A stretch of DNA of 64,000 bases from a bacterium (lineage in GTDB: Bacteria; SZUA-182; DTGQ01). The DNA lies in contig JBFLZW010000031.1 in NCBI GenBank assembly GCA_040755755.1, forward strand, positions 64,561 through 128,560, read 5' to 3'. Position numbers and translations under genes: made by a program. The notes below the pieces were generated by a model. It was not told the origin of the DNA, searched no databases, and worked only from the letters and a program-made list of their open reading frames with translations. Numbering within the stretch: the stretch's first letter is position 1; each line of letters opens with the position of its first letter. Shown piece by piece: positions 18,787 to 26,750 of the stretch.

Positions 18787-19968
18787 GTGTTTCATATCGC
18801 CACTGAGGATGAGATCAAGGCCGGGGCGGTCACGGATGTTTATTTCCAGCGCACTGAAGAAATCCTGCGGCATGAAGGGATCAATCACCAGGTTGTAGCC
18901 GAGGTGACCATGAAGGATGCTTCCCCAGGATGGAATTGGGGGATTCTGGCCGGCACGGAAGAAGTCACCCGCCTGCTGGAGGGGCTGCCGGTCAATGTCT
19001 GGGCCATGTCCGAAGGGACCCTGTTTGGCCTGGAGCAGCCGGTTCTGGTCATCGAAGGGAAATACCTTGATTTTCTAAAGTATGAAACCTCCCTGCTCGG
19101 CCTCCTCTGCCAGGCTTCCGGAATCGCCACCAAATCCTCCCGCTGCCGCAAGGCAGCCGGAAACCGGATATTAGCCAGTTTCGGAGCACGCAGAATGCAC
19201 CCCGCCATTGCTCCCATGATCGAGCGCAGCGCCTTTATCGGCGGATGTGATGGCGTGGCGGTAATCAAGAGCGCCGAGCTCATTCATGAGCTGCCGGTCG
19301 GAACCATGCCCCATTCGCTGATTCTGATGCTTGGAGACACCGTCAGCGCCTGTCGTGCCTTTCACGAAACCATTGACCAGCAGATACGGCGGGTAGCCCT
19401 GATCGATACCTTCTGCGATGAAAAAGAGGAGGCCCTTCGGGTAGCCGGGCAGCTTGGTCAGAACCTGTTTGCCGTTCGTCTGGATACCCCTTCCTCCCGC
19501 CGGGGCAACATGCGGCAGATCCTTGAGGAAGTCCGGTGGGAATTGAATCTGCGGGGCTTCCAGCACGTTAAATTATTTGTCAGCGGAGGGATCGATGAGC
19601 GCAGGATCCTTGAGCTCAACCCGGTGGCTGACGCCTATGGCGTGGGGACCGCCATCAGCAACGCCCCGGTTTCGGATTTCGCCCTCGATATTGTAGAAGT
19701 CGCAGGCAAGCCGATAGCCAAACGAGGGAAAAAATCTGGCCGGAAAACGGTGCTGCGATGCCCTGACTGCTTTCAGACTCAAGTCCTGGCCGCAACCGCT
19801 GAAGGCCTCGGCATTGCTCAACAGGAAGTCATCTGCTCCTGCGGAACCCCTCTTGAACCCCTCCTCACCCCGCTCATCCACCAGGGAAACGTAGTCCGCC
19901 CCCTTCCCTCACCCCAGGAAATCCGCTCCTTCGTCCTCCGGCAACTTGAGCAGGTGACGTTAGTCTAG
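18787..19968 (+). CDS. nicotinate phosphoribosyltransferase, archaeal/short type, with C-terminal Cys4 zinc ribbon
   Basis: NAPRTase-family core (DVYFQRT, ASFGARRMH, LDTPSSRRG) and a C-terminal CPDCF...CSCG ribbon. The stop TAG at 19966-19968 lies in the CTAG target duplication of the downstream element. Confidence 0.75.
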   Translation: MFHIATEDEIKAGAVTDVYFQRTEEILRHEGINHQVVAEVTMKDASPGWNWGILAGTEEVTRLLEGLPVNVWAMSEGTLFGLEQPVLVIEGKYLDFLKYETSLLGLLCQASGIATKSSRCRKAAGNRILASFGARRMHPAIAPMIERSAFIGGCDGVAVIKSAELIHELPVGTMPHSLILMLGDTVSACRAFHETIDQQIRRVALIDTFCDEKEEALRVAGQLGQNLFAVRLDTPSSRRGNMRQILEEVRWELNLRGFQHVKLFVSGGIDERRILELNPVADAYGVGTAISNAPVSDFALDIVEVAGKPIAKRGKKSGRKTVLRCPDCFQTQVLAATAEGLGIAQQEVICSCGTPLEPLLTPLIHQGNVVRPLPSPQEIRSFVLRQLEQVTLV

Positions 19969-20581
19969 GTAGTGTATGCAAAGCCTGTAATTTATGTTAA
20001 GTCTTTGATATAATGAAAGTATGGAGAAGAACAACAGAGGAGAATTAACCGATGGACAATGGGAGAGGCTGAAGGCATTGCTTCCCCCACAAAAACCAAA
20101 GACAGGGAGACCTGTGGCGTAAGGCTGGTGTCTGGGACAAGATATTTTCTGTCCTCCAGGCACAGGGTGAGGCTCAAGGTGCTATAGAGTGGGAGGTGAA
20201 CTTTGTTGATAGCACCATCATCAGAGCCTACCAGCATGCGGCTGGGGCAAAAGGGGAGACCAATCCACAGAGGCTCTTGACTACAGCCAGGGGGGATTCA
20301 GCACCAAGGTACACCTCAGATGTGGTTATGAGTTTACCCCAGGAGGTATAAGGAATCTCCAGAGGTCGGAGTAAAGATTTTCCCACAAGCTGGTTCAGCA
20401 AGGAGAGAGGTCTATACTTTATCCCCTGCTGCTAAGGCCACCTCCCTTTCAGGGACTCACTTGTGTTCGCCGCCTTGACAGCGCTTTCGTTTCGCGTAAA
20501 GGGCTGCTCAAGTGGTGCAGAGAATTTTCTTTATCGGTGGCTATGGAAACCCGTTTACCACTGAGGCTTTGCATACACTGC
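19969..20581 (+). mobile_element. IS5-family-derived miniature, non-autonomous element with degraded transposase N-terminus
   Basis: 18-bp terminal inverted repeats (GTAGTGTATGCAAAGCCT / AGGCTTTGCATACACTGC, one mismatch) flanked by a direct CTAG duplication (19965-19968 and 20582-20585). Internal frames give MEKNNRGELTDGQWERLKALLPPQKPKTGRP (IS5/IS427-group N-terminus), then stops and frameshifts. Confidence 0.6.
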
Positions 20582-20681
20582 CTAGAAACAGTAGGAATAG
20601 GGAATAAAGAAAAGTTTATATGAAGTCATGTTCAAACATTCAACCATTGACTTACAAAAATTAGAAAAAGGAGGATTAAAA

Positions 20682-20897
20682 ATGGTTGATAGCATTGATG
20701 TCCATGATTTACCGGAAGAGGAAGTTAAATTTATTCAGGAATTCACAGAGTTTATAAGACAGAAAGTAAGGAGCAATAAAGTGCAAAAAGGAGAAGAAGG
20801 GATAGAAGAAGAGATAACAGAAGAAAAAGCCCTTACCGCCCATTCTTCAAATGTAATTGGTAAACTTACGAGAAGAGAAATCTATGACTACCTCTAA
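20682..20897 (+). CDS. putative antitoxin of a VapBC-like pair
   Basis: 71-aa acidic ORF with strong RBS (AAAGGAGGA). 14-nt overlap with the downstream PIN gene. Low-GC islet. Confidence 0.45.
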   Translation: MVDSIDVHDLPEEEVKFIQEFTEFIRQKVRSNKVQKGEEGIEEEITEEKALTAHSSNVIGKLTRREIYDYL

Positions 20898-21327
20898 TCT
20901 TGCACTCTTGGATAGTAACATTCTCATTTATAGACATCAGGCTCTTTCGGAGTTTCACACCAGGACAAGAGCACTGTTAAGGAAAGGATTTAAAGGTGAT
21001 TTGCTTCTTGGTATCTGTCCTCAGGTTCTCAATGAATTTTATGCGGTAATTACCAATCCCAGACGGGTGACCGATCCTATATCGCCAGCAGAGGCGGTTA
21101 GAGAAATTGAGACATACATTAAAGCTAAAAATATCATAAAAGTATATCCTAAAGAGGATATCTTTGATGTAACTATCCATCTCTTGAAAACCTATAAGAT
21201 CAACGATAGAGATATTTTTGACCTGCAATTAGTGGCTACGATGATCTCTAATGATATTACCTGCCTTTATCCATATAACCAAAATGATTTTTCCAGATTT
21301 AAAGAGATAGAAGTATTAACACCGTAG
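20884..21327 (+). CDS. vapC: PIN-domain toxin (VapC-like)
   Basis: LALLDSNILIYR at the N-terminus, a conserved acidic residue in DIFDLQLVATM, ~145 aa. Confidence 0.7.
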   Translation: MTTSNLALLDSNILIYRHQALSEFHTRTRALLRKGFKGDLLLGICPQVLNEFYAVITNPRRVTDPISPAEAVREIETYIKAKNIIKVYPKEDIFDVTIHLLKTYKINDRDIFDLQLVATMISNDITCLYPYNQNDFSRFKEIEVLTP

Positions 21328-21496
21328 ATTATAGACTTTCTCCCCGTTGGTTGCCTTAACCGTCCACAAGGAAAGCGGTATCGTGCTGCCGCAGTCCAAA
21401 GCGGCTGCCGCTGCTTTTTGCCTTGTTCGTTTGCAAAAAGATGAGGAACCTGTGCCTGGCAAGGAGGATTGAACCCTTACCTTACCCCATCCCCCT

Positions 21497-23281
21497 CTAA
21501 CAGCTCCACTGCCCGCGGTTTCTGATGGCCTGGAAGCGGTGCCAGATCTCAATGAGGAACCAGTTTTTCAGGATCCATCCGATATTCATCCGCAGCAGGC
21601 GGGTGGGCCATTCGAGCTCTTTTTTCTCACAGATGGTGTTTTCACTCAGCTTGCGGACCCTGGCTTTGAGCTTCTGCATTTGCCGGTCCCGCTCGGCATC
21701 GTCGGATATCAGCATGATGTCGTCGATCTCCTTCATGGCCTTGATGGCCAGTTGCATCCGCTTCTCCGTCCGCTCGGCCTTTTTCGGATTTATCAGGCCA
21801 TAGCGGGCCTTCAGGCGGTTGAGGATCATTCCGGCCTCATAGGAGCTGTCGACGATCTCGCTTCTGGTCATCCACCTGGTTTCGTAGCTCAAGACATATT
21901 TCCAACTGGGGCTTTCCATTGCCCGGCGATGCTCTTCCACCGTGCGGCAGAGGATTTTGTAGCCGAATTTTTCGGGATCCTCGTAGGCCTCGCTCCCCGG
22001 ATCGATAAAGGGGGCATAGGGAGAGATAAAGGGGATCAGCCGTCTGGTATGGCCAAATCGTTCCAGCAACAGGCGGCAGTAGTCAACGGTGTTCAGAACC
22101 GACTGATAGGTCTGCTTTGAAAGGCCGATCATGAAAAAAAGGTCGATGCGCCGGCAGCCAAGGCGCAGCGAGGTATCGATCATCCGCTCCAGTTCCTCGT
22201 TGCCGTAGGGGCGGCCAAAGGTCCTTCGGACCTCTTCATCGTGGGATTCAGGGGACATTTCGATATTGAAGTTTGGCACTGCATCGGCTATCATTTCGAG
22301 GATATCGTCGGCGGGCGGGACAAAGAACTCCACGGCTACGGGATTGCGGATTTTCTGTTTCTTCAGCTCCTTCAGCAGCCGCAGGGCATACTGACGGCCC
22401 GGCTGCATCATGTCGCCGATGATGATGATCGGGGCATTCAGGTTGTTGTCGATGGTCTTCATGTCCCTGGCCAGCAATTCAGGATCCCGGTAGGCGGGCT
22501 TGGGGCGGTTGCAGTTTTTCCGGAAGGCGTAAGCCGCTCCTCCGCAGGTCCGGCAGGTGTGGGTGCAGCCCCGGACATTGAAAACCGCCGTAGCAGGATA
22601 GTTCAGCCAGTTCTGGTAGGGAGTATATCCGTGGAGGTCACGGTATCGCATGACCTTTTTCATGATATGGGAATAATCGATTTTAATGTCGTCAAGATCG
22701 GCCGGTACATTGGTCAGGGGATTGACCTGCACCTTTCCCTGACTGTCCCGCCAGGTGAGGTTGGGAATATGGTCAACCTTGGGGGCAGTGTGGCCATCGG
22801 CTTCCTTGAGCGCCGAGATGAGCTGGCGCAGCGGCTCCTCGGTCGAGTCTCCCCGCATGACGTAGTCGATCTGGGGATAGCAGCGGATCAGTTCTTCATG
22901 GAAGTAGGTGGAAGAAAGCCCTCCGAAGATAACCGGTGTTGCGGGATGGTATTTTTTTACAATCTCAGCCAGAGCAAGACTCCCCTGGACATGGGGCATC
23001 CAGTGCAGGTCGATACCGAAGATGCGGGGATGGAGGTTTTTAATCTCCTCTTCCACATTGTATCGTTTGCTTCGCAGCATCTTCAGGGCGATGTTGATGA
23101 TCCGGACATGGAATCCGAACCGGCTGAGGTATTCGGAAATGCTGGTAAAGCCGATCGGATACATCTCAAAAACCGGTGTCGAAGGAACCAGATCGCTGAT
23201 GGGTCCAAAGAGAATGGCTTTTTCTCGAAAATCATAAACGGTTGGCGGATGAAGCAATATCAAATCTGCTTCCTGTCTCAT
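21497..23281 (-). CDS. cobalamin(B12)-binding radical SAM protein (class B rSAM), function unknown
   Basis: 594 aa. N-terminal B12-binding-like domain (ADLILLHPP...PIGFTSISEYL...IFGG). CTHTCRTCGG matches the CxxxCxxC radical SAM cluster motif. The ATG overlaps the selB stop (ATGA). Confidence 0.8.
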   Translation of the reverse strand: MRQEADLILLHPPTVYDFREKAILFGPISDLVPSTPVFEMYPIGFTSISEYLSRFGFHVRIINIALKMLRSKRYNVEEEIKNLHPRIFGIDLHWMPHVQGSLALAEIVKKYHPATPVIFGGLSSTYFHEELIRCYPQIDYVMRGDSTEEPLRQLISALKEADGHTAPKVDHIPNLTWRDSQGKVQVNPLTNVPADLDDIKIDYSHIMKKVMRYRDLHGYTPYQNWLNYPATAVFNVRGCTHTCRTCGGAAYAFRKNCNRPKPAYRDPELLARDMKTIDNNLNAPIIIIGDMMQPGRQYALRLLKELKKQKIRNPVAVEFFVPPADDILEMIADAVPNFNIEMSPESHDEEVRRTFGRPYGNEELERMIDTSLRLGCRRIDLFFMIGLSKQTYQSVLNTVDYCRLLLERFGHTRRLIPFISPYAPFIDPGSEAYEDPEKFGYKILCRTVEEHRRAMESPSWKYVLSYETRWMTRSEIVDSSYEAGMILNRLKARYGLINPKKAERTEKRMQLAIKAMKEIDDIMLISDDAERDRQMQKLKARVRKLSENTICEKKELEWPTRLLRMNIGWILKNWFLIEIWHRFQAIRNRGQWSC

Positions 23282-25209
23282 GGTGCTTCCCTTCTTTTTT
23301 TCAAAATTCTTTTATCCCCCAGTCTCATAGTCAAATTCGAAGTGTCGAAATATTCGAGCAGAGCAATAGCGTACTTTCTGGAAAATCCGAATAAATCCTT
23401 AAACTCGGCTACCGAGATATCAGTTTTGTGCTGAAGATAGCTCTGCAGCTTCTGCTGGATCTGCGACAGGGCCTGCTGATGAAATAACAGTCCTTCTTTC
23501 AGCTTGATCAATGTGCCTTCGTCGATCAGGTGCTGGATCAGTCTGGCAACATCGATGCCGGACGCATGGCAGGTCTGTGCCACTTCATCGAGGCCCGGAG
23601 GCTGATAGCCTGCCTGGCGGCACATGTCCAGGATTTTGGCTTTCTGTTTTTCCTCCTCCGGGGTCAATCTGATCTGGTGAGTAGACAGGCTCAGGGTTTT
23701 CTCCTGGACAATGATTTTCCCCTGCTCCAGCAGCGAGGAAATGATCCGGGCATACAGCCGGGAATCAAGGTCCGGATGCAGGCGGACTTTCAGCTCCTCC
23801 CTGGACATTCCCGATTTCAGGGCAAACCGCTGGTGAAAGCTGGTCAAGGTGTCAATTGCCGCACTCACCAGGCCGTGGAAGACCTCCTGATGAATGACCC
23901 ATTGGTCGAGCGGATCGATGACAACAATCCGCTGCTTTGCCTGCAAATGTCCAAGATGACCGGCTATTCTGTCCTGATCGAGATTGAGGCGGGTTGTCAG
24001 ACGGGCATTGTTGATTCCCTGGATTCCCGCCTGACGGACGATGAATTCAAGGCGCGTCAGATCATCTCCCTCTTCCAGAATACGGAGCCCAGAAAGGACC
24101 GCCGCATCAGACCGCCGGTGCCGGGATGGAAGGTTGTCGATGATGTTTCCGCCTCCGATGGTGATGACCGGAGAATAGGAGCGCACCACAAAGCGGTCTT
24201 TGGCCATCAGGGCCAGGGGGGATTCGAGCTGGAATTGAACCAGGGCCTCCTGACCGGGTGCAAGCTCCTCCTCCTTGTCGAGCAGGACCGCTCTGGCCAG
24301 CACCTCCGATGTTCCGGCATGAAACCGCAGGCGGGCCCGGTTCTTCAGCGGATGAGGAGCGGACGGGAGAAGGGAAATTCGCCCGTCGAGAAGATAGGAG
24401 GCCTGCAAATGGGAAGGCAGTGATACCACATCCCCGCGGGTCAGGTCTGCCTTTTCCACGCCATGCAGGTTAATGGCCACCCGCTGTCCGGCCAGGGCCT
24501 CTTCCACCGACTGGTTATAGACCTGAATTCCCCGGATCTTGGCCTGTTTCCCGCCGGGGAATATTTCAACGGTCAGGCCCTTTTTCAAAGTCCCCGATAA
24601 GAGCGTACCGGTAACTACCGTCCCGAATCCTTTCATGGTGAATATCCGGTCAACCGGCAGCCGGCAGATACCTCCCGGATTCCGGGGCGAAACGCTTTTG
24701 GCCAGTTCTTCAAGGCCCTTGAGCAGAGCCGGGATCCCCTGGCCGGTCGTGGCCGAGACCGGAAAGATGGGGGCGTTTTCCAGGAAGGATTCCCGGACAA
24801 AACTCCTGACATCATCAAGGACCAGCTCCAGCCACTCCGGATCAACCATGTCTGTCTTGGTGACCACCACGATCCCCTTCTGGACCTGGAGCAGACGGCA
24901 GATATCGAAGTGCTCGCTGGTCTGGGGCATGACCCCTTCATCAGCGGCGATAATCAGCATCACCGCATCGATGCCGGTCACTCCGGCCACCATATGCCGC
25001 ACAAACCGCTCATGACCCGGCACATCGACAATGCCAAGGCGCTCTCCATCCGGCAGGTCCAGATGGGCAAATCCCAGCTCGATCGTGATTCCCCGCTCTT
25101 TTTCCTCCTTCAGCCTGTCCGTGTCAATGCCGGTCAAGGCCCGAACCAGGGTCGTTTTCCCATGATCAATGTGCCCGGCGGTCCCCAGGATAATCCACTT
25201 AGAGTCCAT
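23278..25209 (-). CDS. selB: selenocysteine-specific translation elongation factor
   Basis: GTPase motifs [22 protein letters not shown]. Long C-terminal winged-helix extension (~640 aa total). Start taken at MDSKW. Adjacent to selA. Confidence 0.9.
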
Positions 25210-25307
25210 CCCAAAGCTCCATTCCAAATAAAGAAAAGACACCACACAGACACAGAGACACAGAGAAAAGCACAGGATGTCGCGGTGTCTTTATCTTTTT
25301 CAAGGTA

Positions 25308-26750
25308 TCACCTCGCATCGCTTCCCCACTGTTCGAGAATTTGTCTGCCTGCCTGGATAATCTCCGGCACATCCTCATCCTGAATGGTCCGCAGGCTCAA
25401 AAGAAACCGTCCATGATTGATGCGCCCCAGAACAGGAGGCTGATTCAGGCGAAACCGCTCCTCGAGCTGGTTGATTTCTTTTCCGGATGAGGAGATGGCC
25501 ACCGAAAGGGAAGGAATGTTGTGCAGGGGAAAGGAGCCGCCGCCCACCTGGGCATCGTCATCGACCATCTCGATACTGACAGTATCATCATCATGCCGGT
25601 CTGAGGCCAGACCTTCCAGTATCCGTCTCCCCCGCTCCTCAAGCTGCTGACGGGAGGCGGTGATCATGCGCAGGGTGGGAATTTTCTGCAGAACGTCCGG
25701 TTCCCGGTACAGCTTGAGCGTACTCTCAAGAGCGGCCAGGGTCATTTTGTCAGGCCGCACAGCCCTGGTCAGAGGATTTTTCCGCAGAAGTCCGGCATAT
25801 TTTCCCCTGCACAGGATAATCCCTGCCTGCGGCCCGCCCAGGAGCTTATCGCCGCTGAAGGTTACAATCTCTGCCCCCTGCTGAATGATCCGGGAAACAA
25901 GGGGCTCATCCAGCCCGTAAGGGGAAAGGTCGGCCAGCATGCCGCTTCCAAGGTCGCAGATGACGATCAGCCCCCGTTCCTTACCCAGGTGAACCAGTTC
26001 CGGAAGGCTTGTTTCTTCCGTGAAGCCCACAATCCGGAAATTACTGGGGTGTACTTTCAGAATGGCTGCACTGTCTGATGTAATCGCCTGCCGGTAATCC
26101 TCGATGCGGGTTTTATTGGTGGTGCCGACCTCCACCAGCCTGGCCCCTCCCTTTTTCATAACCTCCGGAACCCGGAAAGATCCGCCGATTTCTACCAGCT
26201 CTCCCCGGGAAACGATTACTTCCCGGGATTCGGCCAGGGTATTGAGAACCAGCAGAACCGCAGCCGCATTGTTATTTACCACCAGAGCATCTTCTGCGCC
26301 GGTCAGATGACAGAGCAGCCGGGTGATGGAATCCCCGCGCTTTCCCCTCTTTCCGGTCAGGAGGTCATACTCGAGGTTCGTGAAGCAACTGGCCGCCGTG
26401 GTAACCCTTTCCACCGCCTCACCGGCTAAAACAGCCCGTCCGAGATTGGTATGCAGAATAATCCCCGTAGCATTGATCACTCTTCCCAATTCAGCATACT
26501 GGGTTCTCTGAAAGTACAGGTCCACTTCTTCCAGGACAGAGCTTGCCGAAACCCGGAATTCTTCAAGCTCCTGCGGGCTGGTACAGGATAAAATCCACCC
26601 TCTTTTCCCATCAAGAACCTGCCTGATCCCCTCAACCAGAATCCACCTGGGATACCAGGAAAATCTTTCCCCCCTGGCTGCGGCATGGTGAAGGATTGAT
26701 TCCACCGAAGGTATCGATCTGAGGCAGGCAGTTTGCAATTCACTCAGCAT
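25308..26750 (-). CDS. selA: L-seryl-tRNA(Sec) selenium transferase
   Basis: 480 aa. PLP-fold core with GGSFRVPEV...GDKLLGGPQAGII, the SelA signature lysine region. Confidence 0.9.
   Translation of the reverse strand: MLSELQTACLRSIPSVESILHHAAARGERFSWYPRWILVEGIRQVLDGKRGWILSCTSPQELEEFRVSASSVLEEVDLYFQRTQYAELGRVINATGIILHTNLGRAVLAGEAVERVTTAASCFTNLEYDLLTGKRGKRGDSITRLLCHLTGAEDALVVNNNAAAVLLVLNTLAESREVIVSRGELVEIGGSFRVPEVMKKGGARLVEVGTTNKTRIEDYRQAITSDSAAILKVHPSNFRIVGFTEETSLPELVHLGKERGLIVICDLGSGMLADLSPYGLDEPLVSRIIQQGAEIVTFSGDKLLGGPQAGIILCRGKYAGLLRKNPLTRAVRPDKMTLAALESTLKLYREPDVLQKIPTLRMITASRQQLEERGRRILEGLASDRHDDDTVSIEMVDDDAQVGGGSFPLHNIPSLSVAISSSGKEINQLEERFRLNQPPVLGRINHGRFLLSLRTIQDEDVPEIIQAGRQILEQWGSDAR

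Follow-up and report, generated by a model that had tools for sequence, protein, structure and literature searches.

Insertion sequences (ISs) of the IS427 group, such as IS1248, ISPaes1 and ISPam4 of Paracoccus, measure 832-865 bp, end in inverted repeats (IRs) of 13-21 bp and carry two overlapping open reading frames (ORFs) with a conserved frameshift motif; their direct repeats are 2 bp for most members and occasionally 4 bp (PMC3281130). CTAG direct repeats have been reported for a related IS5-type element (PMC9241763). We analyzed a 64,000-nucleotide stretch of bacterial DNA (contig JBFLZW010000031.1, positions 64,561 to 128,560 of the forward strand; hereafter the window), in which an element of 613 bp (window 19969-20581) begins at the stop codon of a nicotinate phosphoribosyltransferase (NAPRT) gene. 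This element is very likely a defective copy of an IS5-family, IS427-group insertion sequence. It differs from the described members of the group in that it has been cut to 613 bp, lacks two of the three catalytic residues of the transposase and contains 160 bp of unrelated sequence.

The region 19965-20585 reads CTAG, then GTAGTGTATGCAAAGCCT through to AGGCTTTGCATACACTGC, then CTAG, and its ends are made of the following features.

19965-19968, unstranded: left copy of the CTAG target, adjoining the left repeat; CTAG also precedes the left end of related ISs in six other, differing flanks
19969-19986, plus strand: left terminal inverted repeat (TIR) GTAGTGTATGCAAAGCCT, of which relatives keep G[CT]NGTGTATGCAAAGCCT
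20564-20581, minus strand: right terminal inverted repeat, reverse complement GCAGTGTATGCAAAGCCT; its GCAGTG variant is found as the left end of the relative L020
20582-20585, unstranded: right copy of the CTAG target, adjoining the right repeat

The two terminal repeats are 18 bp long and complementary at 17 of 18 positions, with one mismatch. A repeat finder gave the arms as a 23-nt inverted repeat of 96% complementarity, because the palindromic CTAG and one further base extend the 18-bp repeat. A search for the 18-mer that tolerated up to three mismatches found no sites in the 64 kb other than these two, against an expectation of 0.07, and two or more matches occurred in none of 100 shuffles. 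CTAG itself was counted 10 times in the window, compared with about 250 occurrences predicted by base composition and about 45 by a Markov estimate. Since the tetramer is so rare, two copies that exactly abut the repeats are not due to chance. CTAG is the rarest palindromic tetramer of the window, where ACGT (55) and CGCG (73) are low too. The duplication is either the 4-bp CTAG or its central 2-bp TA, as the palindromic site fits both; a TA duplication would add one base to the element on either side (19968-20582).

The family was then assigned from full-length relatives of the element. Among 5.8 billion proteins, a search found about 300 of the OrfA type, 120-190 aa long and marked with PF13340. 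The best of them showed only 52-54% overall identity, an effect of the 40 residues absent from the query; the parts present in both were near-identical. At the DNA level, the identity over element positions 4-352 was 89-90% to contig L003 (positions 4-146 and 147-352), 78-89% to L020 and 83-86% to L004-L007, and the sole gap in these positions relative to the relatives was a clean deletion of 119 bp. In all related copies CTAG is directly followed by G[CT]NGTGTATGCAAAG[CT]CT, and no two contigs have the same flanks. The complete 867-bp element was found in L004-L007 with CTAG on both sides and four different flanks, while L003 and L020 added two further independent left flanks with CTAG, which makes six independent contexts in total; the contigs of these last two stop about 80-95 bp short of the right end. 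The intact copy of L005 (positions 430-1296) is 867 bp long with a perfect 14-bp TIR.

The OrfA proteins of L003 and L005 are 141-147 aa long. In an intact relative, OrfA has 141 aa, and a -1 shift at GCAAAAAGG would fuse the two frames into an OrfAB of 266 aa. For L005, the reconstructed OrfAB matched the NCBIfam model NF033580 (IS5 family transposase) from end to end (300 bits, E 1.1e-89). DDE transposases of this short IS5 type combine an N-terminal DUF4096 region with a DDE_Tnp_1 domain. The relatives thus resemble the IS427 group in length (867 bp versus 832-865 bp), in their repeats (14-18 bp here versus IRs of 13-21 bp), in the short duplication of 2 or 4 bp, in the two overlapping ORFs with a -1 frameshift and in a DDE transposase of about 260 aa that matches NF033580. 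The assignment to the IS5 family and the IS427 group is secure. It agrees with the derivation proposed in the first-pass annotation, which had also described the 613-bp length, the 18-bp TIR with one mismatch and the CTAG on both sides as they are found in the sequence. The same target signature occurs at the six related copies, and the related full-length ISs whose absence would have spoken against that proposal do exist.

The closest annotated transposases to OrfAB belong to an ISSoc13-like element on a plasmid of Nostoc sp. HK-01 (AP018325.1; 62% aa identity) and to ISMra2 of Methylobacterium radiotolerans (NC_010510.1; 58%). Both matched in two pieces over 98-100% of the length, which is consistent with a frameshift. 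They are likewise bounded as CTAG, GGCGT and so on, CTAG. Their ends, however, are GGCGTGTTTTAAAACT and GGCGTCTCTGCAAA as compared with GTAGTGTATGCAAAGCCT, so that the outermost bases alone are common, and they differ further from the window copy in that they come from other phyla and are intact. As a separate observation, the full-length 867-bp relative in the JGI contig L004 (814-1702, 1692-2920) is nested in an IS630-like element, whose terminal repeat has the target CTAG at its tip; this element carries HTH_23 and DDE_3 genes and the repeat CTAGTACCCTGACAAGG, and L006 has the same flank.

The interior of the window copy was resolved into the following parts.

20006-20014, plus strand: putative extended -10-like motif TGATATAAT, 6 nt upstream of the orfA ATG, within the invariant columns T42-T50 of the alignment with relatives
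20021-20122, plus strand: truncated N-terminus of orfA, 33 aa MEKNNRGELTDGQWERLKALLPPQKPKTGRPVA; Pfam DUF4096 at E 1.6e-4, below the gathering score
20115-20252, plus strand: rest of orfA in another frame (WRKAGVWDK...NFVDSTIIRAYQHAAGAK); 89% DNA identity to L003, and 76% (E 1.6e-17) by tblastn with the OrfAB of L005
20248-20253, plus strand: programmed -1 frameshift site CAAAAG between orfA and orfB, the same as in L003 when the frames of L005, L003 and the window are compared
20251-20403, plus strand: start of orfB (...EALDYSQGGFSTKVHLR...TPG...LVQQG), homology fading after about 20403
20404-20563, unstranded: about 160 bp of unassigned sequence, in place of the catalytic C-terminal two thirds of orfB

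The 119-bp deletion has its junction at 20114/20115, after GAGACCTG, and the missing segment is present in all relatives (mapped against L003 and L005). It removes about 40 residues of OrfA and shifts the frame, and for this reason the first ORF stops at 20122. The lost residues would be part of the DNA-binding region of OrfA. The region of the first catalytic Asp (VDST) is retained, with GAT at 20208-20210. The change of frame at 20248-20253, judged from the compared reading frames, would be the normal programmed -1 site and not a mutation. Within orfB we found an in-frame deletion of about 21 bp (about 7 codons) near 20322-20328 and a stop codon at 20372-20374; the last faint match to orfB is LVQQG at about 20403 (BLASTP E 0.007). 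The full OrfAB used as a tblastn query on the window copy covered residues 2-164 of 266 and no more, and the second Asp (GDKAY) and the Glu (IERLINRLK) of the DDE triad are missing.

The forward frames hold recognizable pieces of an IS5-type transposase, namely LTDGQWERLKALLPPQKPKTGRP, WRKAGVWDK...NFVDSTIIRAYQHAAGAK and GGFSTKVHL. Stitched together, the 111-aa remnant matched NF033580 with an E-value of 6.5e-20 and 71.8 bits, a score below the cut-off of 110 bits because the remnant is truncated. About 435 bp of recognizable orfA and orfB are left, and the element, 254 bp shorter than the intact form, keeps 71% of the full length. Autonomous members of the IS427 group have about 800-1000 bp and a complete transposase; here we found 613 bp, deletions and no complete DDE triad. 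The window copy cannot encode a transposase and is hence non-autonomous, as had been stated before. The earlier description of the interior as stop- and frameshift-ridden holds for the stop codon, for the 119-bp and 21-bp deletions and for the C-terminal part that is lost or replaced, but not for the CAAAAG site, where the change of frame is the programmed one. The interior also encodes more than the N-terminus formerly attributed to it, since the 435 bp include parts of both orfA and orfB and the region of the first catalytic Asp.

The motif TGATATAAT, which ends 6 nt before the orfA ATG (20021) and is invariant in relatives, suggests a leaderless transposase mRNA. A consensus promoter scan did not report the motif at 20006-20014.

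The gene upstream keeps its native C-terminus.

18787-19968, plus strand: NAPRT gene, 393 aa; NF006415 at E 5.6e-154, 512 bits against a cut-off of 243

This gene is the one previously called pncB-like, and the NF006415 score bears that name out. Its TAG stop (19966-19968) lies inside the left CTAG. Its protein, with the C-terminus ...VLRQLEQVTLV, stops in the alignment where most of 12 homologues (...VSLS, ...VTLS) do, showing that the insertion has neither shortened nor lengthened it, and because its length is that of its relatives, the native gene must already have ended in GTC TAG, a CTAG site. The earlier claim that the duplicated CTAG forms the stop is literally true; the insertion created no new one, however, as the native gene must have ended in C-TAG, and the NAPRT gene is intact despite the insertion. 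If the pair at the element is counted once, the window has nine CTAG sites, and three of the nine are TAG stops of ORFs (396, 183 and 726 codons). An IS that requires CTAG in a CTAG-depleted genome would therefore be directed to stop codons about one third of the time. Such depletion would funnel a CTAG-specific IS to TAG stops and intergenic sites and so make its insertions unusually harmless.

These features suggest the following course of events. The intact form of about 867 bp carries repeats of 14-18 bp together with orfA and orfB, which a programmed -1 frameshift would join into a DDE transposase of about 266 aa. This enzyme would cut at the repeats and place the element in a palindromic CTAG, of which all four bases or only the central TA would be duplicated. 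One copy would have entered the CTAG that holds the NAPRT stop, the left duplicate restoring the same stop and leaving the protein unchanged. It may have lost its function after the insertion, or may have been defective already on arrival. The lesions comprise the out-of-frame deletion of 119 bp in orfA, the loss of about 21 bp early in orfB and the replacement of the part with the second Asp and the Glu of the DDE triad. Since both terminal repeats are intact, the remnant could move if a cognate transposase were supplied in trans.

Several observations weigh against this interpretation of the element as a decayed, target-duplicating IS. No empty site was found when the exact NAPRT protein and its closest homologues were searched; contigs with an identical NAPRT protein all carry the element too, and in the closest other NAPRT orthologues, at about 82% aa identity, the stop codon is TGA or TAA and other genes follow. 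The target duplication is for this reason read from its pattern and not seen directly; the predicted empty site would hold CTAG only once and read ...GTTAGTCTAGAAACAGTAGG.... Nor was a full-length master copy of close (>90%) identity found. Finally, the 160-bp segment at the 3' side has no recognizable source, which is odd under decay by deletion alone, since this region is conserved among the relatives at about 90% identity.

This 3' segment was analyzed separately, over 160-220 bp. Local alignment with the relatives on both strands scored no better than shuffles. All stop-free frames gave no relevant match in NCBIfam or Pfam, and no transposase model matched downstream. The Rfam search returned only a sub-threshold snoRNA match, and the RNA folding of the segment was not unusually stable (z -1.7 and +0.6). 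With phmmer, 1.84 billion representatives yielded two matches only, both inflated by internal repeats. With tblastn the segment seemed similar to the left end of the IS on its minus strand, but this similarity failed the test at the DNA level. Continuing the frame of orfB, 70 codons are free of stops through the right TIR; they include FVSRKGLLKWCREF, which weakly resembles a helix-turn-helix (HTH) motif, VSTVYGWCREF, repeated in two unrelated metagenomic proteins; this resemblance is probably spurious.

Taken as a whole, the element is an unnamed defective member of a well-known IS group, real but ordinary, and it involves no new mechanism. The 620 bp after NAPRT should be annotated as a defective IS5/IS427-type element and not as several small hypothetical ORFs. 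Beyond annotation this matters little.

We considered whether the element might instead be an active, multicopy unit resembling a miniature inverted-repeat transposable element (MITE), which was deleted before it transposed to this site and is mobilized in trans by a full-length IS elsewhere. IS-derived MITEs have the TIRs and target duplication of their parent IS and no functional transposase gene, and in these respects the element is alike. Its two TIRs (17/18) and the flanking CTAGs are intact despite gross internal damage, and soil metagenomes contain true MITEs, about 130 and 177 bp long, that share the GGCGTGTATGCAAAGCCT ends and are flanked by CTAG. In addition, the Logan k=31 contigs of two samples with an identical NAPRT both end at 20545, 36 bp before the right end of the element, as expected if the terminal 66 bp or so were repeated in those samples. 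The same contigs, however, run unbroken through the left end, contrary to what repeated whole copies would produce. Neither tblastn, nor blastn at word size 7, nor a pattern search that allowed 3 mismatches found a second copy in the 64 kb, and the window has no transposase of the family. MITEs are, moreover, usually shorter than about 300 bp, multicopy and without long coding remnants, while the element has 613 bp, 71% of the full length, and about 435 bp of transposase sequence.

Public collections were also scanned with the pattern CTAGGNNGTGTATGCAAAGCCT. The GTDB genomes gave one match, a decayed relative in a metagenome-assembled genome (MAG) of the Chloroflexota, and the JGI metagenomes gave five matches, all small MITEs of other subtypes. 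No further copy of the element was found in either collection, neither of which held the window's own genome. Taken together, these data make an active MITE-like unit unlikely, and favor a defective IS copy for which mobilization in trans is possible. The earlier term MITE-like is not demonstrated: the parental TIRs and CTAG do enclose no transposase coding capacity, but the element retains 71% of the full length, a single copy is seen, and we saw no sign of mobilization in trans.

The MITE of about 130 bp (L009:689-820, a JGI metagenome contig) has the end GGCGTGTATGCAAAGCCT and CTAG on both sides, and the one of about 177 bp (L010-L013; L011:132-308) carries that end and the two bordering CTAGs in at least three different contexts; neither has homology to transposases. 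In the decayed Chloroflexota relative (JAGNBF010000033.1, L008:2400-2700), CTAG is followed by the left end seen here; an in-frame stop interrupts its OrfA-like frame, QLTDKQ*QQLQSLLPLEKLKTGRPNLSHRQIIN, and no orfB was detected in it by tblastn. The conserved end of the clade, GNNGTGTATGCAAAGCCT, beside CTAG is a possible key for searching metagenomes for full-length, decayed and MITE forms.

Downstream of the element lies a toxin-antitoxin (TA) pair.

20682-20897, plus strand: small acidic ORF of 71 aa from an ATG behind GGAGGA, presumed by its position to be a VapB-type antitoxin; no family match
20884-21327, plus strand: vapC toxin gene with a PIN domain, outside the element; Pfam PIN at E 3.2e-7 and TIGR00028 at E 8.5e-20

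The VapC protein scored 31.4 bits with Pfam PIN (cut-off 23.6) and 71.4 bits with TIGR00028, just under the cut-off of 73.6; the presumed vapB ORF overlaps vapC by 14 nt. The GC content is 36-40% over about 20550-21450, compared with 55-59% in the flanking genes. A low-GC VapBC pair is thus present, as had been noted, with the antitoxin recognized by position only. VapC homologues of exactly 147 aa are widespread, and outside this MAG the best reaches 68% identity, a pattern typical of TA modules that are shuffled horizontally.

According to a second alternative, the element is the boundary of a mobile or polymorphic unit that carries vapBC, or an outward promoter of the IS now drives vapBC. 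The pair begins about 100 bp past the right end on the same strand as orfA and with sharply lower GC, and the conserved TGATATAAT of the left end points towards it with no terminator predicted on the plus strand in between. Two Logan contig ends, at 20545 and at 21382 (the latter on a contig with an identical radical-SAM gene), bracket exactly the right IS tip and vapBC. The exact VapC is on record from the NCBI MAG only, while the flanking proteins recur in 2-3 Logan samples. On the other hand, the CTAG on both sides of the 613-bp unit indicates that the IS inserted alone into a pre-existing junction. The window contains no second TIR-like sequence elsewhere and hence no composite structure; a composite transposon with vapBC is ruled out. 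The downstream synteny varies among relatives (rpsO-pnp in L014, mraZ in L016), the contig breaks may be ordinary repeat breaks, and a middle contig of about 896 bp may be below the size at which proteins are recorded. We therefore regard this alternative as quite improbable.

The segment between the contig ends (20546-21381) could reflect ordinary repeat breakage or a polymorphism in the presence of vapBC. That the right IS tip and vapBC are together present in only part of the natural population, or move there as a segment of their own, strikes us as hardly probable; if they did, a dead IS would supply a recombination or transposition end, or a leaderless-type promoter, to a toxin-antitoxin cassette. 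The element cannot be said to mark or to cause the acquisition of vapBC. The first-pass annotation had placed it at the edge of an acquired islet, and this view is unsupported: the duplicated flanks correspond to a simple insertion into the existing pncB-vapBC junction, and there is no second IS end beyond vapBC.

A chance intergenic palindrome flanked by CTAG, in favor of which there is nothing but the single copy in the window, is practically excluded, as the shuffles never gave the two repeat matches and the interior both shares 83-90% identity with independent IS copies whose ends are the same and matches the IS5 transposase model.

Further downstream, on the minus strand (21497-26750), a B12-binding radical-SAM gene, read in its own direction, follows directly on homologues of selB and selA, assigned from the Pfam marks on the matching Logan contig L017. 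The presence of these homologues indicates that the organism probably makes selenoproteins.

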